DNA of 40,426 bases, from IMG/VR virus record IMGVR_UViG_3300029815_000032; one strand, 5' to 3'. Of this stretch, positions 1-35,500 are shown one piece after another (the first letter of the stretch is position 1; the number at the start of each line of letters is the position of its first letter). The notes below the pieces were generated by a model. That model worked only from the letters and a program-made list of their open reading frames with translations. It had not been told where the DNA came from and ran no database searches. The translations under genes were made by a program, and so were the position numbers. The stretch comes from a virus.

Positions 1-99
1 CTTTTTATAAAAAGTGCGAGGAAATTTCAAAGGGACTGGGAGGATCATTACTTCCGATGGGAACCATTACTTTTGCGGGACTAGATACAGCATCGCAAG
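1..99. repeat. Terminal direct repeat, copy 1 (identical to 40328..40426). Circular-assembly overlap or terminal redundancy.
   Basis: Base-by-base comparison: ctttttataaaaagtgcgagg...gatacagcatcgcaag occurs at both window ends. Confidence 0.95.
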
Positions 100-761
100 T
101 TGCCGGATATATGTATAACATTTCCGAGGATTTTACGACAGACAGTAGATTTAAGGATGGAAGTGATATTTCCTATCCTAAAGGGACAAACGTGTATTAC
201 ACATCCGATGGCTTTTGGGATTGTCTTGCTGGATCCAATGTTACCGGTGTGAAGGGAGAAAACGAGGAGTTTTACCGTAATGGAAATGTCAATATCACGA
301 AAGAAAATGTAGGACTGGGAAACGTACCAAATGTGTCAACGAATAAGCAGACTCCAACCTTTGAAACAGCAAATACGCGCGAAAATATAGAAAGCGGAGA
401 AACACTGGAAACGATCCTAGGTAAACTGGCCAGATTGTATGAGGATTTGGTAACAATAGCATTTTCCGGTGAGTATGGAGATTTAACCGGAAAGCCAACG
501 ATACCGACCAAGGTTAGCCAGTTGACAAATGATTCCGGCTATAAAACCACTGATACCAATACCTGGAAAGCAAATTCGTCATCCAGTGAGGGATATGTAG
601 CATCCGGGAAAAATCAAGTAAATAAAGTCTGGAAAACAGATGCAAATGGTAACCCGGCTTGGAGAGCAGAACAGACCATAAGCCTAGCGACTACGTCCGC
701 AAATGGTTTGATGAGTAAAGAAGACAAAATAGAACTTGAAAAATGCGGATATCCGCACTAA
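3..761 (+). CDS. Tail fibre protein, C-terminal part. Continues the ORF left open at 38851..40426 across the circular junction.
   Basis: The frame is open from base 3 and matches the frame at 40327. Fibre-type motifs GLGNVPNVS and AFSGEYGDLTGKPT are present. Stop at 759..761. Confidence 0.85.
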   Translation, partial: FYKKCEEISKGLGGSLLPMGTITFAGLDTASQVAGYMYNISEDFTTDSRFKDGSDISYPKGTNVYYTSDGFWDCLAGSNVTGVKGENEEFYRNGNVNITKENVGLGNVPNVSTNKQTPTFETANTRENIESGETLETILGKLARLYEDLVTIAFSGEYGDLTGKPTIPTKVSQLTNDSGYKTTDTNTWKANSSSSEGYVASGKNQVNKVWKTDANGNPAWRAEQTISLATTSANGLMSKEDKIELEKCGYPH

Positions 762-777
762 TGAAAGGAGAACCAAT

Positions 778-1392
778 ATGGCATACAAAAAAGTAGGATG
801 GAAAGATTATCCGGATACAACAACACCGGTCAATGCAACTAACCTAAATCAAATGGATGAAGGGCTTGCAGCGGTCGATCAGGAACTGACGACGCAGAAA
901 GAAAATGCTACAGATATGCAGGATACGATAGACCAATTAAATACAGGTTTATCTGAACTAAACTTAAAGATGGAATTAGTCAGATCCCATGTTGGCATGA
1001 TCGTACAATCTACCACCCTTGATACCGAAGCCAAGGTAATCGCCATTTATGGCGGTACATCCTGGTCTAAGGTCGAGGGGAGATTTCTGCTTGGCACTTC
1101 ATCTTCCTATGCTGTCAATTCTATCGGAGGTGAAACTGCGCACACTTTAACAACGGCTGAAATGCCATCACATAATCACGCATCATCAACAAGAAGAGGA
1201 GCAATACCCTGTTGGGATAACAAAGCCAGTTCAACCGGTAAATATTATGGACTTTACGACGGTTCACTGGCGTATCAATCATCATATGCTTACGATATAA
1301 GTGCAACAAGTACAAGTCTTGCAGGTGGAAATGCAGCTCATAACAATATGCCTCCATATAAAGTAGTTTATATCTGGGAGAGAACTGCATAA
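778..1392 (+). CDS. Second tail fibre / receptor-binding protein. Constant N-terminus plus the currently expressed C-terminal cassette V1, which has a phage tail-collar-like domain.
   Basis: ATG 778 follows GAAAGGAG. The C-terminus (GGETAHTLTTAEMPSHNH...GGNAAHNNMPPY) matches the tail-collar motif pattern. The track start at 736 lacks an RBS. Confidence 0.8.
   Translation: MAYKKVGWKDYPDTTTPVNATNLNQMDEGLAAVDQELTTQKENATDMQDTIDQLNTGLSELNLKMELVRSHVGMIVQSTTLDTEAKVIAIYGGTSWSKVEGRFLLGTSSSYAVNSIGGETAHTLTTAEMPSHNHASSTRRGAIPCWDNKASSTGKYYGLYDGSLAYQSSYAYDISATSTSLAGGNAAHNNMPPYKVVYIWERTA
937..974. repeat. Inverted repeat, left copy (IR-L), 38 bp, inside the fibre CDS.
   Basis: ttaaatacaggtttatctgaactaaacttaaagatgga is the exact reverse complement of 1763..1800. 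Identity stops abruptly at both edges. It encodes LNTGLSELNLKM in frame. Confidence 0.95.
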
Positions 1393-1762
1393 TTAAAATG
1401 TTCCGCCATAAATCTTCGCTGGGATCATCACATTTGCATTGCCATTTGCGTTGTCTGCGCTAGTGTCGACGATACCATTTCCAAAATTGATCGCACCGCT
1501 TGAACCAACGCTTACTATACGACGTAAGTTGATTGCATTATATGATGATCCGGTAATGGTATTCTTGGCAACATATCCAGGAATACAACACACCGCAGTG
1601 TATGCTTTGACACACCGAATTAGTCGGCTCCCAGTGTAAGTTGTCGTCGCTTTAAACAGAATATCCACATAGTCATAGTCGCTAAGATCAAGTGTGATGG
1701 TCTGCGTAGCGAAACTTTTAGTGGTATCGCTATTTGACCATAGAAGTTTCTCGCGAGCAGAG
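1393..1762 (-). other. Silent alternative fibre C-terminal cassette V2. It has no start codon or RBS of its own and would be expressed only after inversion of 937..1800.
   Basis: The minus-strand frame reads ...LNTGLSELNLKM|DSAREKLLWSNSD...IYGGTF*. It is in frame with the IR and unrelated to V1. Its stop abuts the V1 stop, forming TAATTA at 1390..1395. Confidence 0.7.
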
Positions 1763-1800
1763 TCCATCTTTAAGTTTAGTTCAGATAAACCTGTATTTAA
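1763..1800. repeat. Inverted repeat, right copy (IR-R), 38 bp.
   Basis: Exact reverse complement of 937..974. Confidence 0.95.
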
Positions 1801-1825
1801 ACTAACAAAAAAGTGGATGAAAAAA

Positions 1826-1877
1826 GTGGGTGCCGGGGGAGAAAAAACCATATATACATGAGACAATATTTATATAG
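1826..1877 (+). promoter_or_regulatory. Late-promoter-like element, copy D, upstream of the lysis operon.
   Basis: GTGGGTGCC-GGGGGAGAAA (G-box 1835..1844), then CATGAGA and an AT-rich TATATA at 1871..1876. Near-identical architecture to copy C at 38781..38830, including the shared ATTACGAAAGGAG RBS region. Confidence 0.5.
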
Positions 1878-1895
1878 ATTACGAAAGGAGAAACC

Positions 1896-2228
1896 ATGGC
1901 AGAGGAATTAACAGCAAGAGTGTCTGTCTTGGAAGAAAAGATCAAGGTCTCTAACCACCGCATTGATGATCTGGAAGATAAAACAGATCGTATTGAAAAG
2001 TTGACTTTATCAGTTCAAAAACTGGCTATGTCGGTTGAGCAGATGGCAAAGGAGCAGATCGACTATCGTGCCAAGCAGGATCAGATCGCAAATAAACTGA
2101 TCGAGTTGGAGCAGGCACCGGCAAAGGACAAGGCTAAAAAGGTAGACAGTATCCTTACATATGTAATGCAACTGGTCGTAGCCGCTTTCGTTGGTGCAGT
2201 TCTAGCATATATTGGAATAAGCGGATGA
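1896..2228 (+). CDS. xhlA: XhlA-like haemolysin / lysis accessory protein (N-terminal coiled coil plus C-terminal TM helix).
   Basis: AAAGGAG RBS. Coiled-coil N-terminus and C-terminal hydrophobic helix (LVVAAFVGAVLAYIGI). Sits directly before the holin and endolysin. Confidence 0.65.
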   Translation: MAEELTARVSVLEEKIKVSNHRIDDLEDKTDRIEKLTLSVQKLAMSVEQMAKEQIDYRAKQDQIANKLIELEQAPAKDKAKKVDSILTYVMQLVVAAFVGAVLAYIGISG

Positions 2229-2244
2229 GAAAGGAGTGAGGAAC

Positions 2245-2478
2245 ATGAAGAATTGTGTATTTAAAGCGTCTGTGAATACAAAGCAGTGGCTTGTTGCAGC
2301 AGGAGTAAGAGCGACCAAGACCATGGCGCAGACGGCGCTTGCGCTTTTACCGGCGGCGGCAACTATTTCACAAGTTGATTGGAAAACAGTAGTCGGTACA
2401 GCGGCTTTAGCAGGTATTGTATCGATTTTAACGTCGATCGTTGGCATCCCGGAAGTAACATGTAATGAAAATAAATGA
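2245..2478 (+). CDS. Holin.
   Basis: ATG 2245 with AAGGAG 8 nt upstream (the track GTG at 2236 is less likely). 77 aa with two hydrophobic segments (VRATKTMAQTALALLP..., GTAALAGIVSILTSIVGI). Located between xhlA and the amidase. Confidence 0.75.
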   Translation: MKNCVFKASVNTKQWLVAAGVRATKTMAQTALALLPAAATISQVDWKTVVGTAALAGIVSILTSIVGIPEVTCNENK

Positions 2479-2495
2479 ACAGGAGGAAAAAAAGA

Positions 2496-3524
2496 ATGAG
2501 AATTAACGTTCATGCCGGTCATAACCCGGAAGGTAAAATTGCTTGTGGAGCAAGAGGAATTTTAGATGAATCCAGAGAAGATCGCATCATCAAAAACAAG
2601 GTGATCCAGTTACTCCGTGCAGCAGGACATGAGGTCTTTGATTGTACGGTTGACGATGGAACAAGCCAGAGCGATGTATTGAGAAGAATTGTAGAGAAAA
2701 GCAATTCCCACGATGCTGATCTTGATGTCAGCATCCATTTGAATAGCGGCAGAAACGACTATGTCGGAGACGGTTCTATTGGTGGTACGGAGGTTTTTGT
2801 TTTCAACATTTCAGAAAAGAACAAGACTGCTATTGCCTACGGTAAGGCTATTGTGGAAAAGATCGGAGATATCGGTTTCCGCATCCGTGATGATGCTATT
2901 CCGGATCATATTAAGACAGACTCACAGTTGTATGTTCTTAGAAATACGAAAGCACCTGCCGTTCTGGTAGAATGTTGCTTTGTTGATGACAAGGACGATG
3001 CAGATCTTTACAATGCGGATAAGATGGCACAGGCTATCGCAGACGGTATTATTTCACTTGCCGGCTCGTCAGCACCGGTACAGACACCAGAGGTAACACC
3101 GACACCAGTGCCAGCACAGACAGGACACAATGTAAGTGATACCGTTTCGTTCAACAAAATCTACAGTACAGCAGATTCAACCACACCGCTCAATCCCAGA
3201 GTGACATCCGGTAAAATTACAAAGATCCTTGCAGGAAGAGCAAATCCATATCTGATCAACGGCGGTACCGGATGGGTCAATGACGGATGCATCACCGGTG
3301 GCGGATCAGTTGCTCCGGCGGCTCCAGCGGTAAATTACTACCCGGCATATACCGGCGGTAGTAACTCAATCACAGAGGCGTTGAAGTCGCTTGGCGTGGA
3401 TTATTCAATGGCACACCGTCAGAAGATCGCATCTGCCAATGGTATCGGTGGTTATGCAGGAACTTACACTCAGAACGTCACAATGCTGACACTGTTAAAA
3501 CAGGGCAGATTGATTTCTGCTTAA
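2496..3524 (+). CDS. Endolysin: N-acetylmuramoyl-L-alanine amidase (Amidase_3 type) with C-terminal putative cell-wall-binding domains.
   Basis: AGGAGG RBS before ATG 2496. N-terminal MRINVHAGHNPEG...SIHLNS...VLVECCFVDD pattern is typical of MurNAc-LAA amidases. A Pro/Thr linker is followed by C-terminal domains. Confidence 0.85.
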   Translation: MRINVHAGHNPEGKIACGARGILDESREDRIIKNKVIQLLRAAGHEVFDCTVDDGTSQSDVLRRIVEKSNSHDADLDVSIHLNSGRNDYVGDGSIGGTEVFVFNISEKNKTAIAYGKAIVEKIGDIGFRIRDDAIPDHIKTDSQLYVLRNTKAPAVLVECCFVDDKDDADLYNADKMAQAIADGIISLAGSSAPVQTPEVTPTPVPAQTGHNVSDTVSFNKIYSTADSTTPLNPRVTSGKITKILAGRANPYLINGGTGWVNDGCITGGGSVAPAAPAVNYYPAYTGGSNSITEALKSLGVDYSMAHRQKIASANGIGGYAGTYTQNVTMLTLLKQGRLISA

Positions 3525-3582
3525 TACATAAGAAAAAGCAATGCAGAGGAAACCATAACTTTTTAATTTAAAGAGGACATTT

Positions 3583-3840
3583 ATGGATAGAAGCCTACTG
3601 GTGCGCTTTTGGAATTGTGGAGACGATCAGATCATCCAATTTGCAGTTCAAAGAGCGCACTTAAACAGGCACGAAAGAGAAGTATTGCATCTTATGCTTG
3701 ATGAATGTAAAACACAAGAAGAAACAGCAGAGATACTTGGATATAGCACGCGACGAGTGCAGAAATTTTGGTATGACGGAGCCGATAAACTCCTTCATAT
3801 ACCTTGGGTTGAAGCATATGCTAAGACTATCAAGGGTTAG
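3583..3840 (+). CDS. Small sigma-70 region-4-like HTH protein (85 aa), a putative transcription regulator.
   Basis: HEREVLHLMLDECKTQEETAEILGYSTRRVQKFWYDGADKL resembles the region 4.2 HTH of ECF and late sigma factors. No region 2 is present. Last gene before a terminator. Confidence 0.55.
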   Translation: MDRSLLVRFWNCGDDQIIQFAVQRAHLNRHEREVLHLMLDECKTQEETAEILGYSTRRVQKFWYDGADKLLHIPWVEAYAKTIKG

Positions 3841-3870
3841 TATCCTCCATCAACATTCTTTTTAGAGAGA

Positions 3871-3898
3871 AGAGAACTGTAAAAGGTTCTCTTTTTTC
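3871..3898 (+). terminator. Rho-independent terminator after the lysis/regulator operon.
   Basis: Stem agagaac / gttctct with an 8-nt loop, followed by TTTTTT. Confidence 0.7.
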
Positions 3899-3980
3899 TT
3901 GCGCAAAATTTGCGTGTCTGCATCGTGGGAAGTCAAGGAGAAGCATGACATAATTATCATAGCGAAAGGAGATGGAGATC

Positions 3981-4337
3981 ATGAATCAGTTTAATCAGTA
4001 CAACAACAATTATAACAGGATGCCTCAATTTGCGAAAAGTTCGCTTGATTGGATCATGGTACAGTCAGTAGACCAGGTCGAATCCGTGGCAGTGCAGCCA
4101 ATGTGTAAAGCATGGATCATGGTTCAAAATGAACCGATATTTGCCCTGCGTCAGGCGGATTCTATGGGGCTGACAACAACAGAATTTTATCGCTTTGAGA
4201 AATATGAACCAAATCCAGCACCAGAGTATGTGACGAAAGCAGAACTGCTGGCAATGATTGAAGAAATGAAGGGAGAAAAAGATGAATCCACTACTACAAA
4301 ACGTGGTAAAGCCACAAGTCAATCCGCAAATGCTTAA
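3981..4337 (+). CDS. Hypothetical protein (accessory cassette gene 1).
   Basis: ATG 3981 lies 9 nt after AAAGGAG; the track ATG at 3972 abuts the RBS. Gln/Asn-rich N-terminus. No recognisable domain. Confidence 0.6.
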   Translation: MNQFNQYNNNYNRMPQFAKSSLDWIMVQSVDQVESVAVQPMCKAWIMVQNEPIFALRQADSMGLTTTEFYRFEKYEPNPAPEYVTKAELLAMIEEMKGEKDESTTTKRGKATSQSANA

Positions 4338-4533
4338 TGGAATAAAGGCATATATGCAAACGATGAAAATGGCACAGAACCCAACGCAGGCATTAGAGCA
4401 GATATGCCAGCAAAATCCCCAGGTACAAAACGTTGTGGATCTGTGCCGTGGTAGAGACCCCAAAGAGGTATTTATGGAACAGTGTAAGAAACAGGGCATT
4501 GATCCGCAACAGATCATAGATATGTTGATGTAA
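4282..4533 (+). CDS. Hypothetical Gln/Pro-rich small protein (accessory cassette gene 2).
   Basis: GGGAGA RBS before ATG 4282. Overlaps the previous ORF by 56 nt in another frame. Confidence 0.55.
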   Translation: MNPLLQNVVKPQVNPQMLNGIKAYMQTMKMAQNPTQALEQICQQNPQVQNVVDLCRGRDPKEVFMEQCKKQGIDPQQIIDMLM

Positions 4534-4581
4534 CGAGTGCGCACTCTTGCATATATAAAATTTTTGAAAGGAGATAAGACT

Positions 4582-5232
4582 ATGGATAACTTATCATTAT
4601 CAGACATTGCGTCTGTAACCAGAAACAATGATGACTGCTGGGGAGGAGGAATGGGGTTCTTTTGGATCTTTGCACTCTTACTTTTGCCGATGCTTTCGGG
4701 AGGCGGTCTGTGAGGGAATAACGCGGCCAGCACTGCCGACATTCAAAGAGCCGTAGACCTTAACAGCATTCAGCAGGGACAGGCAGGCATTGCGGCTGAC
4801 GTCCAGCGAGGCATTTATGAGATCAATGGTGCCACCAAAGATGCAGCCTATAACAACCTTGGAGAAATCCGGGATGTTGGAACGGCTGTTTCATCGAACA
4901 GCGCGAACATCATCAACAATTTGACGCAGCTGGCATCAAACATGCAGACTTGCTGCTGCGAGACAAAGCAAACGATTTTAGAAAATCGTTACCTGGATCA
5001 GCAGAACACCAGTCAGTTACAGATGGCATTGATGCAGTCAGAGGCGAACACAACGGACAAGTTCCAGAAAATCATGGATAAGATGAATGAGGATAAGATT
5101 GAATCCTTACAGAATCAGATCAATGCGCTTAATCTACAGAACGCAGTCGCAGGAGTTGTGAGATACCCTACTGCAACTACATACACCAGTGGCAGTAATC
5201 CATTTTGCGCAACCGGATGTGGTTGTTTCTAG
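4582..5232 (+). CDS. Membrane-anchored, coiled-coil protein with a Cys-rich C-terminus. One reading frame interrupted by an in-frame TGA at 4711..4713 (readthrough/recoding or recent pseudogene).
   Basis: GAAAGGAG RBS before ATG 4582. N-terminal Gly/Trp-rich TM segment (GGGMGFFWIFALLLLPMLSGGGL*). The same frame stays open for 69 further codons with no ATG/GTG/TTG until the TTG at 4921. Ends ...CCCETK...CATGCGCF. Confidence 0.55.
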
Positions 5233-5244
5233 GGGGTGCTTGCC

Positions 5245-5634
5245 ATGAACCATATCATCGAAACGCGACTGGAAACTGCAACAACCCTGACCGCAGGGGC
5301 ATTGATTCCTTATGGAACAGTCGAGCATAAGCAGGGATGCAGTATGGACGCAAGTGGAACAACGATTAAAATCAAGGGAAGTGGCTACTACACTGTAGTT
5401 GCTAACGTCACGCTGGCACCGACTGCCGCGCAGGACATCACAATTACCCTGGCAAATAACGGAGTACCGATTGCCAAGGCTATTGAGACACCGAGTGCAG
5501 CAGGAAGCAACGTGAACCTTACTCTGATCGGAGTTGTTTACAATCCTTGTGGATGCGCAAACGACGCTCTGACGATCTCTGTAGACTCCGCTTGTACCGT
5601 CAATGCATCTAATGTGATCGTAGAAAGGAAGTAA
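5245..5634 (+). CDS. BclA C-terminal-domain-like (TNF/C1q-like jelly-roll) protein without a collagen-like region.
   Basis: AGGGGG RBS 8 nt before ATG 5245. GSGYYTVVANVTLAPTAAQDITITLANNGVPI resembles the ...GFYKITVIANTATA...TIQVNGVPVPG pattern of the exosporium BclA C-terminal domain. Confidence 0.5.
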   Translation: MNHIIETRLETATTLTAGALIPYGTVEHKQGCSMDASGTTIKIKGSGYYTVVANVTLAPTAAQDITITLANNGVPIAKAIETPSAAGSNVNLTLIGVVYNPCGCANDALTISVDSACTVNASNVIVERK

Positions 5635-5637
5635 CAT

Positions 5638-5814
5638 ATGAATGCAATGAGTGAATATCTGGAAGAGTGGGAACGATATGTCATAGACCACTATCGCCCG
5701 GAGGACATGAACAGTAGGGGGAAACTTGATGAGTTATATCGTATCGCAGATATCATGAAAGATCTGGCAGAGTACGATAATGCGTCAAAGGGACTTACTA
5801 TGGGAATGATGTAA
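5638..5814 (+). CDS. Hypothetical 58-aa protein (below the ORF-track cutoff).
   Basis: ATG 5638 overlaps the end of the preceding gene. Acidic helical sequence MNAMSEYLEEWERYV.... Followed by a strong hairpin. Confidence 0.45.
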   Translation: MNAMSEYLEEWERYVIDHYRPEDMNSRGKLDELYRIADIMKDLAEYDNASKGLTMGMM

Positions 5815-5817
5815 AAC

Positions 5818-5855
5818 AATACCCTCATGGTGCTAATGAGTGCCATGAGGGTATT
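5818..5855 (+). terminator. Strong hairpin / putative terminator closing the accessory cassette.
   Basis: 13-bp perfect stem aataccctcatgg / ccatgagggtatt with a 12-nt loop. The downstream T-tract is weak. Confidence 0.55.
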
Positions 5856-6039
5856 ATAAATTTTACAAACATATAACATATCCATTACTTACATTTCACA
5901 GGATATTGTCATAATTCAAATAGATGTAGGAAAGAAAAATAATAATATTAGCATAGTGCATATGCAACTAATGTTGCGGAGGCAGTATGCGAACAAATTA
6001 CAGGACGCAATCCATACGAGGATGAGGAATAGGGCACGC

Positions 6040-7353
6040 TTAGTGTCCTATTTTTATGTTCAGGGTCTTATCCGGGAGAACTTCTATAGATGATATAAAG
6101 GATCGCCAGAAGGCTCTCTTGTGTATGTCGTCAAGTTTTATGTATGTCTCTTTCCAGTTGTCATCCAGTATGATAGGTTCCCTGTCTGACATCATTCTGT
6201 CAAGGTCTGATATGTCACGGAGAATAAGTTCGCGCTTTTCCTTGTATTCCTCAACTGACAGATCGCCGACCTCAAATCGTATGCCTACTCGCTCCAACTT
6301 CTGCTCTAAAGCCTTTCGCTTATCTTTGGCATCGGACTTCTTTTCTTCGTTTGATAAATTGATGTTGTATTTGCTTATGATGGTTGCTATCTGATCGAGC
6401 AGATACTTCTCGACCTTCCTCTCACTGATCGTGAGCCTTTTTTCGTGCTTCGTAGCATAAGTTTTACCATCACAGACATAATACTTGCAACGAACTTTTC
6501 CAGTTTTGATCTGGTTGGTTGAAGATTTTGCGCCCATCCTGTTACCACAGTAACCGCAGATCATTAGTCCAGAAAAAATGTAATTTATGCCACCCTTAGG
6601 AGTGCGTATATATTGTGACATATTGTCTATGATCTTCTGATGATCTTCTGCCGTAATGTATGCCGGACATGCAAAGCCGTTCATATCGCCTGCATAGATG
6701 GGGTTCTTTAATCGCTTGCGCATCGCGTTCATATTTACATTGTAGCCGACGGCTTGCAGGGCTTCCATGGTCCTGGTGGAAGAATATGTCATCAGGTAGG
6801 TTTTAAACATCAATTCAACCAGTGGAGCAACCGTCTCGTCCTTGACCAACTTCTTATCCACACGCTTGTAACCATATGGCGGGGTTCCTACATAGTCGCC
6901 CTGTGCGCGCTTGTAATCAAATACCGATTTGATACGTTCACTTGTCCGATCAGCCTCTGACTGTGCCACGGATAGCATGATATTTACCTTGAATACACCG
7001 GAGGAAGTCTCGGTCTCATAGTCTTCCCAGATGGCGCGCCAAGGGACATGACAGGCATCAAGCCGTGTCTGTACTTCGTAGTAGTCTGCCACAGATCGAA
7101 ACCACCTGTCTAATTTGGTAAACAGAATGACATCTATCAGTCCGCGCTCACAATCTTCGATCAGTTGCAGCAGGGCAGGACGTTTTTTATATGATTTTCT
7201 GGCAGAGATACCGGCATCATTGTAAAGACCGACTTCCTGTAAGTCGTTTTGTTTGCAGTAGTCGCGGAGTGCCACAATCTGACTATCCACGGATAGACCG
7301 TGTTTCTTTTGCTCATCCGTCGATACACGGACATATAAAGCACATCGTTTCAT
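6040..7353 (-). CDS. int: Large serine recombinase (putative integrase).
   Basis: AAGGAG RBS before ATG 7353. N-terminal resolvase catalytic motif MKRCALYVRVSTDEQ...GLSVDSQ, a recombinase domain, a Cys cluster (CGYCG...CKYYVC) and a C-terminal coiled coil. Adjacent to the immunity region. Confidence 0.9.
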   Translation of the reverse strand: MKRCALYVRVSTDEQKKHGLSVDSQIVALRDYCKQNDLQEVGLYNDAGISARKSYKKRPALLQLIEDCERGLIDVILFTKLDRWFRSVADYYEVQTRLDACHVPWRAIWEDYETETSSGVFKVNIMLSVAQSEADRTSERIKSVFDYKRAQGDYVGTPPYGYKRVDKKLVKDETVAPLVELMFKTYLMTYSSTRTMEALQAVGYNVNMNAMRKRLKNPIYAGDMNGFACPAYITAEDHQKIIDNMSQYIRTPKGGINYIFSGLMICGYCGNRMGAKSSTNQIKTGKVRCKYYVCDGKTYATKHEKRLTISERKVEKYLLDQIATIISKYNINLSNEEKKSDAKDKRKALEQKLERVGIRFEVGDLSVEEYKEKRELILRDISDLDRMMSDREPIILDDNWKETYIKLDDIHKRAFWRSFISSIEVLPDKTLNIKIGH

Positions 7354-7373
7354 AGCAACCTCCTTGAATGTAT

Positions 7374-8003
7374 TTATTCTTTTTTCGCTGATATTAGTTG
7401 TGATAAACATTCTGCACGGAATTCATCTATGCGATTATCTTTTCTAACCAGTAATTTTGACGTGGCATACATGAGTTTGTAGCAGTAAGAACCCAAATCT
7501 GTCATTTCATGGGAATTTTCAATGTTATTTTTTTCAAAAATTTCTTCGACTAAGAATTCATAATATGTACATAAAAAGAAAAGTCTTTTATGTAAGCATT
7601 TACGATATAGGAAATAATTAAAATTTTTTAGATTGTTTTGTTGCCTAAAGAATTCGTGCAACAGCCATTTTCTATAATCGTCAATGTATTTATAAAAAAA
7701 CTTTATATCATTTTCTGTAAGTGAAATAGGCAAGTCGCCATCATCGATTATATATTGTAAAAGGTAATTGGCATGCTCATAATACACATCTCCAACAGCT
7801 TCTTTTATATTATATGTATAGGAAAATTTAAATAATTTATAAATCATCACATATATAATGATAAAAGCAATGGCAAAACATGCCCTTAATTTTTTTTCGT
7901 CTGAACTTATGGATAAAAAAAGATTTACTGCTCCGGACGGGATTATAACAATCAATAGTCCGATTAGTATATATATTCCTAATGATTTTAAAAAATTAAG
8001 CAT
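7374..8003 (-). CDS. AT-rich gene for a two-TM membrane protein with a helical cytoplasmic domain. Candidate superinfection-exclusion, Abi or defence moron.
   Basis: AGGAGG RBS, ATG 8003. Two N-terminal hydrophobic helices. Composition is visibly far more AT-rich than the flanks. Sits between the integrase and repressor genes. Confidence 0.65.
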   Translation of the reverse strand: MLNFLKSLGIYILIGLLIVIIPSGAVNLFLSISSDEKKLRACFAIAFIIIYVMIYKLFKFSYTYNIKEAVGDVYYEHANYLLQYIIDDGDLPISLTENDIKFFYKYIDDYRKWLLHEFFRQQNNLKNFNYFLYRKCLHKRLFFLCTYYEFLVEEIFEKNNIENSHEMTDLGSYCYKLMYATSKLLVRKDNRIDEFRAECLSQLISAKKE

Positions 8004-12085: not shown

Positions 12086-12504
12086 CATCCACGATCAAAT
12101 CGCCCCAGGCGAGTGATGGGATTATAGGATTTGTGATAGAAGTACCGATCACCGAGAAAGAATCGGCAACCAAAAGCCAGTTCTATAGAGTAAATGCAAC
12201 AAAGAACCAGTCTCAACTAATGATTTTTAATCTCGCTCTGTCGCATTTTAAGAAAATGCCTTTTGCATTGAGTATTTATGCGGATTTCGGGTATCTGGAG
12301 AGTGCATTTTCGCAGGGATGGATAGATCAGTGGAAGAAGAACGGCTGGAAAAACGCAAAAAATGAGCCGGTAGGCAATGCCGCCATGTGGCAGGAAGCCT
12401 TGATTTTATTAAATGGGAACGAGATTTCGTTCGACCATGAAACGAAAGACAAATACCGGAACTGGATGTTGAGTGAGATGAAAAGAATGGAGGAAAAGAA
12501 ATGA
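12064..12504 (+). CDS. RNase H-like fold protein; the catalytic acidic residues look poorly conserved.
   Basis: NQSQLMIFNLAL...LSIYADFGYLESAFSQGWIDQWKKNGWKNAKNEPVGN follows the RNase HI pattern. The positions expected to be D10 and E48 read A/S and Q. GTG start overlaps Rep. Confidence 0.4.
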   Translation: MDVNLYLASTIKSPQASDGIIGFVIEVPITEKESATKSQFYRVNATKNQSQLMIFNLALSHFKKMPFALSIYADFGYLESAFSQGWIDQWKKNGWKNAKNEPVGNAAMWQEALILLNGNEISFDHETKDKYRNWMLSEMKRMEEKK

Positions 12505-13898
12505 AAAAAACAGAGAGTGAAATTGTGATGATCGAGACACAGAGGTTGCAGCACCACCCGGACAATCCAAGGAAGGATCTGGGGGACGTGACGGAGTTGG
12601 CCGACTCCATCAAAAAGAATGGGATCATGCAGAACCTTACTGTTATTCCGATCGAATGCACAGAATATGACCCAGAGAAACAGTTGAGAGCAAATAAGAT
12701 CAGTCCGAGCAGTAATTTTTATGTACTGATCGGCAACCGACGACTGGAAGCGTGCTTGCAGGCAGGACTTGAGGAAGTACCGTGCAGGATTGTATCGAAC
12801 ATCAGCAAGAAAGAACAGGTCGGGATCATGTTAGAGGAAAACATGCAGAGAAGCGATCTGACGATCATTGAGCAGGCAGAGGGCTTTCAGATGATGCTTG
12901 ACCTGGGCGAGACGGTTGACAGCATCAGCGAAAAGACCGGATTTAGTAAAGCGACGGTATATCATCGTGTGAACATTGCAAAGTTAGACAAGAAGATTTT
13001 AGCAGACAAGAAAGATGATGAGGGATTTTTCCAGTTATCCATGAAGGACCTGATCGAACTGGAAAAGGTCAAGGATATGAACGAAAGAAACCGGATCCTA
13101 CAAGAAACGTCCGGTGGGAGAGATATTCAGTGGCGCGTGCAGCAGGCGGTAAGAAATGCAAACAGAGAAAGGAATGTGAAAGAGATCAAGAAGATGTTTG
13201 CAGAAGCCGGTCTTGAGCAGGCACCAAAAAAGGCAGAGCAGGAAAGATGGTACAGCAAAAGATGGAATCATTTGCAGGAATGGAACTTAGAAGACGATAC
13301 CTTGGAACCTGTAAAAGAGATCAAGAGAAAGAATGCCATGTGGGTCATCTACGATTATCGTAATGCAGCAGTTGTGGTTGAGGTCAAGCAGAAAGAACGG
13401 CAGTTGTCAAAATCTGAGATCGAAGCACAGAAGAGGGAGGCTAAAAAGAAAGAACTGAGAGCCAAGCAGAAAAAGTTATATAGAACGATCACAGATTTTA
13501 TTAAGGCTATCTTCGTTTTTAAGGAGATCCAACCATTGAAGCCGGATCTGGAATTGTATCAAGCAACCATAGAAGCCATAGTCAAGGTAGGTTCACAGCC
13601 CACGGAAAGTGATTTGGCACAACTCTATGCAGGCAAAGGTCTGTGGGAGATAGAGCGGTCAGAGGACTATGAGAAATATATCAAGTGGCGTGACAGTCTG
13701 ACGACACTGGACCGGGCGATCATATCACTAAAGGATGTAAAGAACAATGATCTATACACATGGGATGGCAAATACCGAGGAGAGTATGCAGAAAGAGTGA
13801 TTGCGGTTGTAGATTTCTTTAAGAAGTATGGATTTTTCATCACAGATGAGATGCAGCAGTTGTTGGATGGAACAGACGAATCCTATGTAAAGGAGTAG
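12501..13898 (+). CDS. ParB-like nuclease-domain protein (465 aa).
   Basis: GGAGGA RBS. ...IETQRLQHHPDNPRKDLG...LADSIKKNGIMQNLTV...LIGNRRLEA... is the ParB N-terminal domain pattern, followed by an HTH (SISEKTGFSKATVYHR). Confidence 0.8.
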   Translation: MKKTESEIVMIETQRLQHHPDNPRKDLGDVTELADSIKKNGIMQNLTVIPIECTEYDPEKQLRANKISPSSNFYVLIGNRRLEACLQAGLEEVPCRIVSNISKKEQVGIMLEENMQRSDLTIIEQAEGFQMMLDLGETVDSISEKTGFSKATVYHRVNIAKLDKKILADKKDDEGFFQLSMKDLIELEKVKDMNERNRILQETSGGRDIQWRVQQAVRNANRERNVKEIKKMFAEAGLEQAPKKAEQERWYSKRWNHLQEWNLEDDTLEPVKEIKRKNAMWVIYDYRNAAVVVEVKQKERQLSKSEIEAQKREAKKKELRAKQKKLYRTITDFIKAIFVFKEIQPLKPDLELYQATIEAIVKVGSQPTESDLAQLYAGKGLWEIERSEDYEKYIKWRDSLTTLDRAIISLKDVKNNDLYTWDGKYRGEYAERVIAVVDFFKKYGFFITDEMQQLLDGTDESYVKE

Positions 13899-15266: not shown

Positions 15267-15280
15267 AAGAGGATGAAGTG

Positions 15281-16174
15281 ATGGACTTAGAAAAACAGGC
15301 AATAGACATCTTGCGGACATTTGCAAGTGATGATCCATACCAATTAGCATATAGCGGCGGCAAGGACTCGGATGTGATCCTGCACCTTGCAAAGAAAGCA
15401 CAAGTGCCATTTAAGGCAGTGCATAATCTTACCACAGTAGATGCCCCAGAGACTGTTAGATATGTGAAAAGCAAAAAGGATGTGACAATAGAATATCCGT
15501 CAATGTCTATGTGGCAGTTGATCGTGAAGCATAAAACACCACCTACACGGATTTTTCGTTATTGTTGTTCGGAATTGAAAGAGCATAGCGGAAAAGGCAA
15601 GAAAACCATAACCGGAGTGCGAAAGGCAGAAAGTCGTAGCAGATCGAATAATCAAGGAATTGTGACTTTTCCTAAGCCGAACAAGACCATTAAAGGGAGT
15701 GTTGACAATGGCGATGTCTTAGCAAGCAGGAAGGGCGGTGTCATTGTATTAAACTACGAAAACGCTGACACACATAGGATGGTAGAGCAGTGCTACCGGA
15801 CAAGTAAGACGTTGGTAAATCCTATTTTGGAGTGGGATGACGACTATTTGTGGTGGTACATCCGGCATGAGGGAATAGAAATAAACCCTTTGTATAAAGG
15901 TGGATGCTCAAGAATTGGTTGTATCGGATGCCCCATGGCAGGAAAGAACAGATACAGAGAATTTGAACAATATCCAAAATATAAAGAAGCCTATATCAGA
16001 ACTTTCGACAGGATGCTGGAACACAGAAAACAGTGTGGTAACAAGAACGTTATGGGCTGGAAAACAGGGCAAGGTGTATTTGACTGGTGGATGGAAGATG
16101 AAAAAATTACCGGTCAGTATTCAATGACCTTTAATGGAACGGATATAGTTGGATATAGCGAAAAAATAACCTAA
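15281..16174 (+). CDS. PAPS-reductase-family (PP-loop ATPase) protein.
   Basis: AAGAGGA RBS 8 nt before ATG 15281. SGGKDS PP-loop motif. C-terminal Cys cluster GGCSRIGCIGCP. Confidence 0.8.
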   Translation: MDLEKQAIDILRTFASDDPYQLAYSGGKDSDVILHLAKKAQVPFKAVHNLTTVDAPETVRYVKSKKDVTIEYPSMSMWQLIVKHKTPPTRIFRYCCSELKEHSGKGKKTITGVRKAESRSRSNNQGIVTFPKPNKTIKGSVDNGDVLASRKGGVIVLNYENADTHRMVEQCYRTSKTLVNPILEWDDDYLWWYIRHEGIEINPLYKGGCSRIGCIGCPMAGKNRYREFEQYPKYKEAYIRTFDRMLEHRKQCGNKNVMGWKTGQGVFDWWMEDEKITGQYSMTFNGTDIVGYSEKIT

Positions 16175-16195: not shown

Positions 16196-16354
16196 ATGGA
16201 ATTTTTAGAGAAATTGGATGCAGAGACATTAAAGGAAGAGTTGCTATCATTTTTGGAAGATGGAGAGGAAATTGTTGAACTAACATCCTTGGTCGAATTT
16301 GAAGAACAGTTTGTAGAATACATTAAAGAAGATTTATCCAGAAGTGATGGATAA
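16196..16354 (+). CDS. Hypothetical acidic 52-aa protein (below the track cutoff).
   Basis: GAGAGGAG RBS before ATG 16196. Confidence 0.45.
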   Translation: MEFLEKLDAETLKEELLSFLEDGEEIVELTSLVEFEEQFVEYIKEDLSRSDG

Positions 16355-16377
16355 ACTGAAAGATGGAGGGAAAACTT

Positions 16378-16785
16378 ATGAATTTGATAGATTTTGCGGC
16401 AATGTTAGATGGAAGAGAAAACGGATACCCGCAGTTCTCTGACGAGGAATTGAAAATTGCAAAAGAAAACAACATTGTTATAGTCACTGGCGCAAGTGAT
16501 GATCTTGTTGAACTTGAGGGAGCGATTTATGACGAAGGAGATTGCTATGAAGGTGGTAAAATATCTGTTAAAGCGATTCCGGGTGGTGGAATTGTCAACA
16601 ACTGTGAACGTTCAAATGTATGCAGTTTTATTGCTAAATGGTGTGAAGATAAGGACGAGCATGGTGTCACTATTCCACGGACATATGACGTACCATTTGA
16701 GCATGAAACCTTTATGATTTATGAGGATGGAGAGCCATACTGTAGAGGATTTATTTTTCGCACAGTAGAAGAAACTGATGTTTAG
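16378..16785 (+). CDS. Hypothetical protein.
   Basis: GGAGGG RBS before ATG 16378. Confidence 0.55.
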   Translation: MNLIDFAAMLDGRENGYPQFSDEELKIAKENNIVIVTGASDDLVELEGAIYDEGDCYEGGKISVKAIPGGGIVNNCERSNVCSFIAKWCEDKDEHGVTIPRTYDVPFEHETFMIYEDGEPYCRGFIFRTVEETDV

Positions 16786-29536: not shown

Positions 29537-32500
29537 ATGGCAAAAAGAAAAACGTTTGACGAAATCTTACAGGAGCGCTACGGATCAAGTGAGGATGAAA
29601 GCACCGGAGTAAATGATAGATCCTATGATGATATCATGCTCGAGCGCAGATTGAGTGGAAAGGAATCTGATAAATGGACTTCGGATATGACGAAAGCCTT
29701 TAATCAGGGCAACAGATACTCCAAGCAGGCATATGAAGGGGCAGTGGAGATTGCTAAGAACAGCAGAAGAGTAAAAACCGGCGCAGAGCGTTATGGCTTG
29801 TTCTCCGGTGGAAATGAGGAAATGAATAAGGGGATCCTGCATAAGGCATCCAATTATATCAAGTCTAAAATCGATGACGGAAAAAGTGAGATCACAGAGG
29901 AAGAAAGTCTGAAACATGCAAGTAATGTGCTTGCCGGAGTATCAGAGGACAACCAGGCACTTTTGAAAAAGTATGTGGACGCACAGGATTCCAGTAAGAG
30001 CACTCCGTTTATGTATCTGATGAATACGGATTCGCCGGTCATGCAGAAACAGCAGATGAAGGACAGTGAGACCATGGACGCGGTAAAGAAGCAGTTCATG
30101 GAAAATACCGGTGTTGATGAAAAGACCTTTAATAAGATGGTCGCCAATTATGGATATACATACCATGCCGACGAGAACGAAAAACAGAAAAAAAAGTTGC
30201 AGCAGTCATCAGGAGCAACAAAAGCACTTGCCAGTGCCGTAGATGTCTTAGCGTCTCCGGTAACTGGTTTTGTAGCATTGGCGGGTACCGGAAAGAACCA
30301 GGTAGACCCGGAACTGGGAAGGGATAAACACACAGTCTATTCTTCACTGAAAGATTTTTCAGAGAACACGGAAGAGGCTGTGTTAAACGATGCAGAAAAG
30401 ATCGATAATAAGGCACTGCGTACCGCGGCAAAGGGGGCATACGAAATCGGCATGGCGACCGGAAAGAGTGCAATGAGCATGATGACCGGTAGTGAGGCGG
30501 CAAGTGCGCTGGGGCTGACCGGAAAGAGTGCAAGAGCCGTGGCAAATCTGGTATCACTGCCGCAGTTTGGCGCGTCATCTTATGTATCTACACTGGAAGA
30601 GGCACAGGAAAGAGGACTTGATACAAAGGACGCTTACCGGACTGCACTTGTCGCAGGTGGAGCAGAGATGGCGACCGAGGTTATCTCACTGGAAGGCATC
30701 TGGGATATTTTAGAGAGCAAAGGAAAAGTTGCTGCAAAGACTGCGATCGGAAATGTATTGAAGCAGAGTTTCTTTGAGGGATCCGAGGAAGTGGCAAATG
30801 ATCTTATCAATGAGATTGCGGATGGATTGATCAATGGGGACAAGAGTAAGTACGTCCAATCCGTCCGGTATTATATGTCAGATCAGTATGCAAAGGAAAA
30901 TGGACTGGATGCACCACTTTCAGAGGATGAGGCTAAGAAAAAAGCCAATATTGACTTTGCAAAGAGTACAGCGATAGATGGTTTCCTTGGTGCGGCCAGT
31001 GGTGGACTGATGGGTGGTGCGGCAACGGCGATCAATGCCTATGCCAATACAAAAGGCGGTCAGTATTTGAGTGGCAACGAGCAGATCCGGGATGATATTG
31101 TACTGAACAAGGATTCAGAAAATTATATCTCTGATGACAGAGCAGATTATGACAGCGAGGAAGACTACCAGAAAGCCCAGGCTGCCATTGAGCAGTTGAT
31201 TGATGACTCAGGCGAGAAGATTTCCGGTAAAGAGGCTAGAAGTCTGTATCAGAATGTGGCAGAGGCTATCGGAAGTCAGAACTCAAACCGGGCAGAGGCA
31301 AGAGTGCAGCGTGAGGTAGAGACAATCGAGAGCGCACAGACCCCGGATGAACTCGTGAGAGCCACAGAGAGCGTGAAGAATGATGTTCCAGAAGTGCAGC
31401 AGGCTATCGACAATACAAAGGCTAGAATGGTCGCACAGGGAGCGACACAGGCAGACTTTGACAATGTAGTTACACCTACCAGAGCATACGAGATGGCAAA
31501 AAGAGGACAGGTTTCTGAAAGTGATCTTGCATCCATGTCTACCGATGCAAGACGTGCGGCAGAAGCAGGAATTTCAGAGAGTGTAAGTGCGGATATTAAG
31601 AACGTGACGAAGTTCGATGCATCTACAGTCCTTGTAAAGGAAAATGGCAAGGCAAAGCAGACCAACATCACAGGAGAAGTCACCAAGAGCGGAGATCAGT
31701 ATTATCTGACGACCAAGAAGGGAGCAAAGGTCGAACTGTCAGAGGATATTTTAAGTGGAACGACCAAAGCAAACGGAGATAATACAAAGGGAAAACTTCT
31801 CATGTATGGTAATAGCCATGCAGCAGGCATTATTTCATTGGAAGACCCGGAACTCATGACGATTGCCTTGCAGACCAAGATCAATCAGCCAAGCGTACCG
31901 TCCACAAGTATTGTAAAGGCTGTGAAAACCTTTAATACATTAGGGCGTAGTGGGGTGTCCTTTGAATCTATTGTAAACGATAAAAAGCAGAAGTTTATGG
32001 TTGATGCGATCGGGGAAAAGGTACTGCGACAGGCATATGATCTGGGAGCAAAAGAAGGTGCGCTGGATGAAGAGAAGATGGCAAACCCTACCACGAAAAA
32101 AGGAAATGGTAAGGTTTCTTTTGCGAGCCGGGAAGCAGAGGGCGCATATGAAAAACTGGATCATGCAAATAAGACTTTTTTGGATAAGTTTGCTGAAAAG
32201 ACAGGAGTAGATTTTGAAATCTTTACCGATGATGCGGATGCAGAGGGAACGGTCAGAGGACAGTATGTGCCGGAAGAAGGAAAGATCCGTCTGAATGTGG
32301 CAGAAGATACAGATATCTTAGAAGTTGCCATGCATGAAGGTATAGGCGAGTTCTTAAAGGCACATAATGCCAAAGGCTATGCAGAGATCACAGAGACGAT
32401 TTTAGATTACTATGCAGAGAATAATGCGGATGCATTGGCAAAGCGTATTGAGGACTACAAGAGAGCCTACAGCGATGAGGAAGGAAAGTCTACCAGAGGA

Positions 32501-35500
32501 AGTGCAGATGAACTTGTAAACGATGTGCTGGCAGAAATCTTTTCGGATGATGCCGGTATTGAGAAACTGGGAACATGGCTTTTTGATAATGGTAAGGAAA
32601 AAGAAGCAAAGACGATCAAGGACGTGCTGATTGATTTTATCAACCAGATGAAGTCATGGATTGCAGACATCAAGGCGCAGGGTGGACTTTCTGCTGCGGA
32701 GCGCAGCAAACTTTCCATGACCGAAAAGGATATGGATGCATTGCAGAATAGGATCCTAAAGGCAATGGATGAGGCTATTGCGAACAGGGATAGCAGAGCC
32801 GAGGGCGAGACTGCGGAGCAGAGCATTAGAAATTCTGTGAAGGTTGATGCCAATGGAAAGCAGTATGTCGAGATCGACGAGGATATTATCAAGGGTATTA
32901 CTGGAAGTAAAAATATCAAGTCTGCTGTGCGTGCCTATATAAAAGAAAATTATCCTTCGATTGATATGATGGGATTTAAGTTAGGAATAAATGCACAATC
33001 GAGAAATGAATTTGTAAACTCCAAGACATCGCAGTATATGCAAAACAAATTAAAGAGATTTTTTATAGACAAAATGCGTATGGCAGGAAATCTGGAGGAA
33101 ATTGTAAATGTAGGAGACGGATATACATGGGAAGATATCAAGCACTCCAGGAAAGACAGACTAATTGGATTTGTCAGAGGAAATGTGCAAATTAGAGTAG
33201 GAAGCAATGATTATATTGCAGATATTGTATTGGCTGATGATAAGACCAAAGGATTGATATTCTACGATATTGTAAACATGAAGTCTACAGCAATAAAAGA
33301 AGCACCTACAGAGCGTACACATGAAAATCATGCGGCTCAGGTCGCAGGTGCTTCTACAGATAGTATATCCCAAAATAAAAAAAATGCAACCGAAATCGCT
33401 GAAAAAGGTAGAAATTCTGTAAAAGTTGAAGCAGAAACTCATGCCAGGGACGCAGAAAGGTTCTTTGGGACTACAAGGAACTGGTCTTATGCAGGTTATC
33501 TTGATATCAATGGAAAACTCTTAGATTTTTCTGATGGACAAAGATACCGAGTGCAGGATCATAGAGAAATAAGTGAGATTTTAGATTTACCAGAAGATGC
33601 AGGATATTCAGACGGCCTTATTCAGTTTATGGCAGAAGGTAATATCAGAATGCAGAAATATGGCATTGATATATCTGTCACACCTAATGAAGCACAGAAA
33701 GGTCGCCTGAGAGACTTCTTTAATCATCTTGAAGGAGAGGTTACTGTAGACTTTAGTGCTCTTAATGGGGATTCTGTGGGAAGTGCAGATTATACAGAGG
33801 GCACATCTGCAACGAGAATTCTAAATGATATTGATACATTCTTTGTGACTGGGGAAGTACCAGAAGGAACGTATAATGGAATCAATGAGTTTAGATATTC
33901 AAAGAAGGTAGACTCAGAAGGCAGAAAATTAACCGAAGCACAGCAGGAATACTTCAAGAACTCAAAGGCTGTAGATGAAGATGGAAATCTTATGACAGTG
34001 TACCATGGAACAGTCAGAGAGTTTTATGAGTTTGACCGGGAGCAAGGAAATCCAGAGGGAAACTTTGGTACAGGAATCTATTTTACTAACAATGAGGCTG
34101 ATGTTGACGAAAATTATGCGAACGAAAAGGGATCAGATCTGACAAATAAAATAGAACTTGAAGCAGACATGCTGGAGGGTACTGATGAATATGAGGATAT
34201 GGATCATGACGAGATTGTAGAAGCATTGAGAAAGAAATATATCACATCAGATGAGCCTATAACCATGGAGTGCTACTTAAACATAGAAAATCCGTGTTAT
34301 GTAGATTCTACTATGCTTTTAGACAATGTCGAAGACTATATGGGAGAAACCATTGAAGACTTTGCAGACGAAGATGAATATTATGAAGCACTGGATGAAA
34401 AAGCGGCAGAGATTGTAGATGATATTGTCGGAGAGATTAGTAGTAACATTGAATTATATAGCGGTACAGATGAAGTAGCAGCAATACTGGGAGAGGCACT
34501 GATGGATGGTGGTATTGCCGTTGAGGATCTGCGCGCGAGATTAGATGAATTATACCTAGAGGATGAAGAAGGGAGAATTGTATCAAGTGAGGTTTTGCGT
34601 CAGATTATAGAATCACTAGGATATGATGGAATTATTGATAGCACAGTGTCTGATAAATTTAAAAATATGAACTTATCAGAAGACATAACGCATTACATTG
34701 TATTCAATTCTAATCAGGCAAAATTTGTGTCGAATGAAAATCCGACAACCAGTGGGGATGTACGTTATTCCAGAAAAGTAAAAGATGCGCGTAAGTCCAT
34801 CAAAGAATACGGCATCGTAAGCCCATATCATGACACACTGAATGAGGCAAACGTAGTATCTGCCATTATGGGAAAAATGAATGAAGCCTTGGATGGAGTG
34901 AGTGTTGATCTTAATGGTGTTATGGATGTGACTAAGAGTATCATAAAGAAATATGATGCTGACATCAGCACAAATGATCTGGCAGGAGCAATCTGGCAAA
35001 CGTTCAGTTACATGAACAATAACCAGATGGAGACAGATTACCAGGGAATGATGGACTACCTGTTGAATATCGGTGACGAGGTCATTGCGACGTCGCAATT
35101 AAAAAATGCGGATCAGCAGGCAGTGTATGATGAGGTCAGAAAGCAACTGCGTACACATGCTATCCATTTAACCAAAGCCGACCGTGCGGAACTCGTTCAT
35201 AGATACGGATCATGGAATGAGGCTTTTGGGGCAATCCAGCAAGCCGGGATAAAGTTAGATAATAACGGCATCAGGATAGATTCTGCATATGGAGATATCC
35301 GAAATGAGATCATGAAATTATCCGGTGTGCAGATGTCGGAAGAGACAACGGCGGCAGATCAGATTGTAAATATCATTGATACGGTATCATCACTTGAACC
35401 GGAGGTAAGCACCTTTGAGGGCGCAAATGACCTGGATAAAAGTCTGATGGTTGCGTCTGACATCATCGATGAATACTATACGCGTGCAGTAAAGGAAATG

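Follow-up and report, generated by a model that had tools for sequence, protein, structure and literature searches.

A two-cassette tail-protein locus in a Roseburia phage, best read as a "Rin-like" shufflon with a putative tyrosine invertase

How might a phage exchange the C-terminus of a tail protein by DNA inversion when its own genome carries no dedicated invertase? The question is raised by the segment at 937-1800 of IMG/VR virus record IMGVR_UViG_3300029815_000032, a stretch of 40,426 nucleotides that was analyzed at its full length and is called the window here. An earlier reading, made from the letters alone (the sequence-only reading), had described this segment as a Mu G-like invertible switch in a tail fibre gene. 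The inversion logic of that proposal stands. The likely enzyme, however, is a XerC/D-like tyrosine recombinase in place of a Gin-type serine invertase, and the locus is no isolated two-state switch, since it belongs to a family of multi-cassette shufflons present in several Roseburia phages. The segment is very probably a genuine programmed module for swapping C-termini, and the best reading of it is a two-cassette, tyrosine-invertase ("Rin-like") tail-protein shufflon, a label that refers to layout and enzyme family.

The segment is framed by two arms, 937-974 on the plus strand and 1763-1800 on the minus strand, which are 38 nucleotides long, 100% complementary and separated by 788 nucleotides, as determined by a repeat search. 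The runner-up inverted repeat in 1-4000 has 24 nucleotides (79%), and a perfect inverted pair of 38-mers would, by our own calculation, arise by chance about 1e-14 times in 40 kb. Junction alignments show that the identity ends sharply at both edges, in agreement with the perfect repeat and abrupt borders described in the sequence-only reading. The left arm lies in frame inside the coding sequence 778-1392, where it supplies codons 54-65 (LNTGLSELNLKM) as had been proposed; codon 66 opens with the final two repeat bases. An 18-bp core, ACTAAACTTAAAGATGGA, forms the inner end of the repeat: in the left arm (957-974, plus strand) it encodes LNLKM, and in the right arm it occupies 1763-1780, the outer 20 bp of that arm being non-coding in the window.

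The gene interrupted by the left arm encodes the expressed small tail protein of 204 amino acids (778-1392, plus strand), composed of a constant part, codons 1-65 (778-972, ending in LNLKM), and cassette A (973-1392), which is ON. Cassette A encodes a Gp10_C/tail-collar-like C-terminal domain (Pfam PF21939, E=1e-10), which spans residues 90-203. The protein matches PHROG tail fibre and tail protein families, and its residues 1-46 match phrog_2012, "minor tail protein"; an AlphaFold2 model has a long helix over residues 20-68, at moderate confidence. Cassette B (1393-1764, minus strand) is OFF. It runs in frame with the right arm, comprising 123 codons (1764-1396) followed by a stop codon (1395-1393), and neither a Shine-Dalgarno sequence before it nor a family match in Pfam or PHROGs was found. 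The two cassettes abut stop-to-stop at TAATTA (1390-1395), and the segment contains nothing else, with no third open reading frame. The in-frame minus-strand cassette that lacks a ribosome-binding site, the shared stop palindrome and the exchange of a tail-collar domain for an unrelated one upon inversion had all been read correctly from the letters.

Homology to tail-fibre families suggests that the cassettes determine receptor binding and adsorption specificity. Structure adds little: a PDB sequence search with the A form gave no match, the AlphaFold2 model of the B chimera has a pLDDT of 60, and Foldseek against the PDB returned nothing below E=0.06, a phi812 baseplate chain being the best hit. 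A promoter and terminator scan of 600-2300 stayed at background, with no terminator between the cassettes or beyond the right arm, and the "lysis-operon promoter element" of the sequence-only reading found no support, as a scan of 1800-1895 gave nothing above the shuffled background. Two short repeats also touch the cassettes. D5 (973-989 and 1617-1633) is, by our own estimate, at or near chance level; I4 (1045-1060 and 1398-1413), a 16-nucleotide inverted repeat with one mismatch, is marginally above it (about 0.1 expected, own estimate). I4 stems from the residues IYGGT, which A encodes close to the beginning of its domain and B at its very end; this could be a shared structural motif, or nothing.

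Does the protein that an inversion would create exist in nature? The predicted chimera, codons 1-65 joined in frame to cassette B, was built in silico and used as a query against a protein database. A natural protein of 188 amino acids, P0001, matches it at 99% identity and 100% coverage, which bears out the predicted in-frame fusion. When related prophages are compared for orientation, the contig that encodes P0001 (L001), an integrated prophage 98-99.7% identical to the window, carries the flipped arrangement: in an alignment of all four junctions the outer flanks are retained and the inner flanks are exchanged exactly at the repeat. The silent cassette B of the window is free of disabling mutations, with 0 of 375 nucleotides different from the expressed L001 copy, and diverged homologues of B (35-85% identity) preserve the reading frame in alignment. 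The silent A cassette of L001 differs from the expressed A cassette of the window in a central patch (546 vs 423 nucleotides). A protein identical to the 204-residue form, P0019, is present on five contigs of about 40 kb, and all five are in the A-ON state.

Other searches returned few informative matches. By megablast, window 1-3600 resembles none of the GenBank phages; the exact 38-mer is unmatched in IMG/VR, as is an Rc-specific 31-mer in JGI metagenomes. The fibre protein, searched against GTDB genomes and IMG/VR, retrieves mostly distant Gp10_C proteins, the informative hits being Roseburia lenta NSJ-9 and two IMG/VR contigs.

Where within the repeat would the exchange take place? Comparison of the sites points to the 18-bp core. 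Its consensus, ACTAAAC(T/A)TAAAG(A/T)TGGA, is the only sequence common to 29 distinct outer-by-inner flank combinations, and it recurs in three or more Roseburia phage backbones that are dissimilar in other respects, in which many outer flanks are joined to at least 15 different cassettes. In the protein database, at least seven unrelated C-termini follow the 65-residue N-terminus, all attached at LNLK(M/L/I), and cassette B for its part occurs behind at least four other N-termini. Five different cassette pairs sit on near-identical backbones, e.g., D with A in L162, A' with C' in L163, A'' with D'' in L168 and C with H in L160, and a metagenome scan yielded 12 further multi-site loci as well as additional cassette types. 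Four sites ordered + - + -, with the lysis genes between two cassette pairs, are found in L160, L164, L002, L272, L317, L362 and L384, of which L002 is an isolate, Roseburia lenta NSJ-9, with a four-site, sipho-like version.

Rearrangement breakpoints fall on the cores themselves. L161 is 100% identical to L160 except for a 1.7-kb segment, the lysis module, which is inverted between two 18-bp cores. Window 957-1780 corresponds to L164 11018-10195 at 96.3% identity and in inverted orientation, with homology beginning and ending exactly at the cores; when L164 is compared with window 1-6000, no further similarity is detectable beyond this core-bounded module. Within it, cassette B differs from the expressed L164 copy at 1 of 375 nucleotides and at none of the amino acids. 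Cassette A differs at 27 of 423 nucleotides but at only 6 of 141 amino acids; because these differences are mostly synonymous, A appears to be kept as a coding sequence. The near-identical B and the mostly synonymous changes in A, taken at sequence level, indicate a recent transfer and purifying selection on cassettes that are sometimes silent. As to the L160/L161 pair, the inverted part (L160 10851-12610 vs L161 10850-10995, the latter from a neighbouring sample) comprises an XhlA-like gene, a holin and an amidase, and such an inversion can leave the lysis genes antiparallel to the late operon.

These comparisons make it hardly credible that the alternative orientations are assembly artefacts of the inverted repeat. 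An inverted repeat longer than the k-mer of the assembler can be traversed either way, but the L001 arms are separated by one single-nucleotide polymorphism and have no exact word above 28 bp in common, the 18-bp cores at which the events of L160/L161 and L164 took place are below usual k-mers, the 99-bp end overlap of the window implies a k-mer above 38, and many independent assemblies are concordant.

The same data bear on a second alternative, that the locus is a frozen relic: the segment would not flip in situ, and exchange of cassettes or modules between co-infecting phages would have left an "A" phage with B as a passenger. Replacement is clearly frequent, given five cassette pairs on near-identical backbones; the window has no recombinase in cis, L001 differs from it in the A allele besides orientation, and the P0019 contigs are A-ON in five of five cases. 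A passenger is nevertheless hard to reconcile with a silent B that is intact and identical to expressed copies, with arms perfectly homogenised over 38 bp, or with silent A copies elsewhere that differ mostly synonymously. Furthermore, the module occurs in both orientations relative to the constant part, and L160/L161 displays a very recent inversion at the cores. We regard the relic as quite improbable and retain the programmed swap module.

Core-like sequences occur in other settings as well. ATAAACTGAAAGATGG, with two mismatches, lies at window 16351-16366, just upstream of the open reading frame 16363-16785, and the sipho-like phage L165 has identical flanks at 6012-6027; the window and L165 share a gene boundary there, which is probably unrelated to the shufflon. 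The 18-mer core is also found singly, between invariant flanks (TAAACTATTAACTATAAACTATAA, core, AAAAGTAACAGTAGT), in L276, L278-L280 and about 35 other loci, and these human-gut contigs show no second site. Apparently this is an unrelated, abundant genomic locus, which produces false positives when patterns are scanned for.

Which enzyme would act at the cores? Pfam and PHROGs searches of all sizeable open reading frames found neither a small serine invertase nor any other recombinase in the window besides one protein of 456 amino acids, and the same searches together with tblastn found no tyrosine recombinase. The sequence-only reading had reported no Gin-like gene, and this holds for the whole circular genome, in which the 456-residue protein, a large serine recombinase (6040-7410, minus strand), is the only one. 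It has the Pfam domains Resolvase, Recombinase and Zn_ribbon_recom and is XisF/Ccr-like by NCBIfam. A Gin-type invertase was rejected, the only Resolvase-domain protein being this large recombinase, 4 kb away and beside attP; a diversity-generating retroelement was also rejected, as no open reading frame has a reverse transcriptase domain and the sole strong repeat is the inverted one.

Could the large serine recombinase double as the invertase? Its one recommendation is that it is the sole recombinase encoded by the genome, and we consider this very improbable. Large serine integrases act on the pair attP and attB and are not known to recombine two sites that are identical, and no third copy of the repeat was found at up to 9 mismatches, so that attP (about 5972-6039) is unlike the repeat. 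The core and the cassettes are moreover found in phages with a 522-residue serine integrase (L160) or with a tyrosine integrase (L165, L179).

A better candidate is encoded by sibling phages. In L160 and L182/L183, a Phage_integrase-family protein of 331 amino acids starts about 35-40 bp outside the last site; by NCBIfam it is XerA/XerC/XerD-like, scoring 215.6 bits where the cut-off is 220. A sipho-like Roseburia prophage type has an 89%-identical copy as its last gene. L266 places this prophage between mecA and the ornithine-decarboxylase gene of the host, and from its position there the recombinase adjoins the cassette end in the circular form of the phage. As a single-sequence query against IMG/VR the recombinase had no match, and an alignment query was needed. 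The IMG/VR homologues of 31-40% identity include 50 loci whose flanks are complete; at 25 of these, an exact inverted repeat of at least 15 bp lies within 300 bp of the gene ends, and five shuffled controls gave 0. One of these loci, L230, is a full analogue, in which the fibre domain is 63% identical to that of the window fibre, a different core encodes LNSDL and the recombinase is located between two cassette pairs. Because the enzyme is site-adjacent in siblings and its homologues are tightly linked to inverted repeats, the clade of the 331-residue recombinase is likely to comprise the invertases. Its match to a Bifidobacterium parmae recombinase is 31%.

Relatives of this enzyme are seen elsewhere under another name. 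About 30%-identical tyrosine recombinases of Terrisporobacter phage TPELB_ph1 (L268 4923-5918) and Clostridium phage phiCp-D (L269 4983-5960) lie between the last tail gene and the holin and bear the annotation "integrase", even though a large integrase is encoded separately in TPELB_ph1; no convincing inverted repeats were found around the recombinase in either phage. A 331-residue "integrase" between the tail and lysis genes of related phages is not to be read as an integration enzyme. A truncated version of 234 amino acids (L265-L267, 10001-10705) sits at a prophage or remnant end beside an ornithine-decarboxylase gene in many Roseburia-type contigs, and it is listed in 34 blocks of the collection index.

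How would these parts work together? A constant 65-codon N-terminus, ending in LNLKM, is followed by the convergent cassettes A and B, each preceded by one site, the two sites in opposite orientations. Recombination at the sites would invert the segment and join the N-terminus in frame to B, not A, the product being the arrangement seen in L001, and late-operon transcription could still continue into the lysis genes in either orientation. Strand crossover would occur within the core, the innermost 18 bp of the 38-bp repeat, catalyzed by the 331-residue XerC/D-like tyrosine recombinase that siblings encode beside the outermost site. Since the window genome has no tyrosine recombinase, the invertase would come in trans, from a co-resident prophage or from the host. 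The core sites would also let whole cassette modules pass between dissimilar phages of one host. On balance, it seems moderately probable to us that the inversion in this genome is driven at the 18-bp core by a tyrosine invertase supplied in trans.

The host makes such a supply conceivable. Host genes flanking window-type prophages cluster at at least 90% identity with proteins of Roseburia lenta and Roseburia sp. AM51-8. By their genomic setting, both phage types are assigned to the same host, Roseburia, and because they share it, delivery of the invertase in trans is plausible.

Several points weigh against this account. Catalysis in trans is conjectural throughout, as is the co-residence of a window-type prophage with the recombinase. 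Reversible flipping inside a single population is a prediction from the comparison of genomes. Owing to the different central patch of its A cassette, L001 departs from a simple flip of the window module, and replacement and inversion are inseparable in it. The receptor-binding function of the cassettes is presumed, the structure model of B being too poor to classify. Finally, all members of the lineage, which as a whole lacks the recombinase, have 38-bp arms, which fit homologous recombination equally well.

This last point is at the heart of another alternative, in which the segment inverts by general homologous recombination over the 38-bp arms, mediated by host RecA or a phage recombinase, the lengthened repeat taking the place of the enzyme. 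The window has no invertase gene, and the whole recombinase-less lineage (window, L001, L162, L163, L168 and L264) has arms of 38 bp, whereas recombinase-linked phages have the 18-21-bp core only. The minimal efficient processing segment of E. coli RecA, reported as 23-27 bp, is below 38 bp; Gram-positives such as B. subtilis require much longer homology, about 70 bp. The correlation of arm length with the missing enzyme comes, however, from a single lineage, and searches of open reading frames for families found no Erf/RecT-type gene in the window. In addition, the inner edge of the repeat is the core that is used elsewhere as an 18-bp site, too short for RecA. Homologous recombination is therefore unlikely in our judgement, and recombination at the core by a tyrosine invertase remains the account that we prefer.

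A bolder extension of that account is possible, and we put it forward tentatively. Dissimilar Roseburia phages may have in the 18-bp LNLKM core a "public" site for recombination, at which one prophage-borne tyrosine invertase would serve all of them in trans, flipping cassettes (in some phages, the whole lysis module) and exchanging cassettes between co-resident prophages.

To which known system does the locus belong? In the Mu G/Gin, P1 C/Cin, p15B Min and e14 Pin switches, an inverted repeat lies in a tail-fibre gene and inversion swaps the C-terminal specificity domain. These Gin-type switches have a small serine invertase (about 190 amino acids) beside the segment, 26-bp sites with a 2-bp core, a Fis-dependent enhancer and a co-inverted fibre-assembly gene (U/U'), and they belong to Gram-negative myoviruses. 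The window locus shares with Mu G and P1 C the inverted repeat inside a fibre gene and the in-frame C-terminal exchange upon inversion. It differs in that the window has no small serine invertase and the segment no third open reading frame, and it is not a member of the Gin/Cin serine-invertase family. In the R64 shufflon, the tyrosine recombinase Rci acts on multiple asymmetric sites of about 19 bp to swap the C-terminus of PilV, and only inverted sites recombine. The likeness extends to the enzyme family (a tyrosine recombinase, presumed here), to multiple short sites and to a swapped C-terminus of a surface adhesin; the target in R64 is the tip adhesin of a plasmid conjugative pilus, as against a phage tail protein here.

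The closest match in layout is the Rin shufflon of Bifidobacterium and Eggerthella lenta prophages, which has a tyrosine invertase and 11-bp rix sites (Mavrich et al. 2018, PMC6109161; PMC8778435). A second bifidophage locus has two segments and no recombinase, and service in trans was proposed for it (PMC6109161). Both Rin and the present locus reside in temperate phages of gut Gram-positives and combine a constant N-terminal part of a receptor-binding protein with promoterless C-terminal cassettes, short asymmetric sites just upstream of each cassette, inversions seen by genome comparison and, at the far end of the locus (here the gene of the siblings), a simple tyrosine recombinase that lacks an arm-binding domain. 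The cassette layout of the Rin type is present in the window, and rearrangements with breakpoints at the sites occur among near-identical genomes; a recombinase at the locus edge is absent from the window. The differences are considerable: the host belongs to Bacillota/Lachnospiraceae rather than Actinomycetota, the site is an 18-bp coding core (LNLKM) rather than an 11-bp rix, the window has no invertase gene and a repeat extended to 38 bp, the lysis module of siblings lies between two cassette pairs and flips along with them, and site and cassettes are common to dissimilar phage backbones.

In a wider sense, the locus falls into the class of gene-altering programmed inversions, or "partial intergenic invertons", catalogued across genomes (PMC9881135; Chanin et al., bioRxiv 10.1101/2023.03.11.532203). 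A survey of computationally predicted gene-altering inversions lists "tail fiber protein" and "phage tail protein" among its enriched target families (Milman et al. 2023, PMC9881135). The searched text of PMC9881135 and bioRxiv 10.1101/2023.03.11.532203 contains no mention of Roseburia or Lachnospiraceae phages, the core site or the recombinase clade. The literature searched contained no description of inversions in Roseburia or Lachnospiraceae phages, and within it four features appear to be new: a coding 18-bp core on dissimilar backbones, the core-bounded transfer of whole modules, a lysis module inside a shufflon, and a member with an extended repeat that has no invertase of its own.

Why does the locus matter? 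Among the butyrate producers of the human gut, Roseburia and other Lachnospiraceae are dominant. Very few of their phages have been cultured, and next to nothing is known about the determinants of host range. The locus is a concrete candidate for such a determinant, with a 65-residue adaptor, tips drawn from at least 15 cassette types, an 18-bp site and a candidate enzyme. If it is true that the invertase acts in trans and exchanges modules, host range would be a property of the resident prophage community and not of single genomes; if the core is indeed a public site, phages that lack an invertase would draw, as free-riders, on a common pool of receptor-binding tips. When these phages are assembled from metagenomes, the locus is where the assemblies will break or differ.

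What kind of phage carries the module? The window is a complete, circularly assembled genome: 1-99 equals 40328-40426, a 99-bp end overlap that leaves 40,327 unique bases. Because the contig is circular with this overlap, a gene for a tail fibre of 745 amino acids (plus strand, PHROG tail fibre families) runs across the contig ends, from 38851 to 40426 and on through 100-761, with coordinates taken from L160. The lysis module (1896-3524, plus strand), identified with Pfam and PHROG profiles, forms the downstream context of the segment and encodes an XhlA-like protein of 110 amino acids, an r1t-type holin and an Amidase_3 protein. A P22-type portal, a T4-type large terminase and a capsid gene are also encoded, and no tape-measure gene was found among the open reading frames with Pfam and PHROG profiles. 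The window is a temperate, podovirus-like Roseburia phage, with the 204-residue protein as its last tail gene. Homology between the window and the L001 prophage stops at window 5971, beside the serine integrase, where the attP region lies. L001 (9394-9545) is integrated just 5' of a response-regulator/histidine-kinase pair, which is followed by Roseburia CmpB, BioY and MatE genes.

Between the amidase and attP (3583-5634) lies a block of small accessory genes, including a Sigma70_r4-like protein of 85 amino acids, several unknowns and, at 5236-5634, a BclA_C-like protein. At the position of this block, L160 instead has the second cassette pair, the tyrosine recombinase and a different serine integrase. 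The early region encodes a ParB_N-domain protein and a PAPS-reductase-domain protein (12501-13898 and 15278-16174), a pairing often tied to phage DNA modification. The open reading frame 29537-38743 encodes a polyvalent protein of 3068 amino acids that is 99% conserved in relatives and carries an ART-PolyVal ADP-ribosyltransferase domain at residues about 1480-1536; this protein is probably ejected, and one relative has a version of 3102 amino acids that additionally bears a MuF_C domain.

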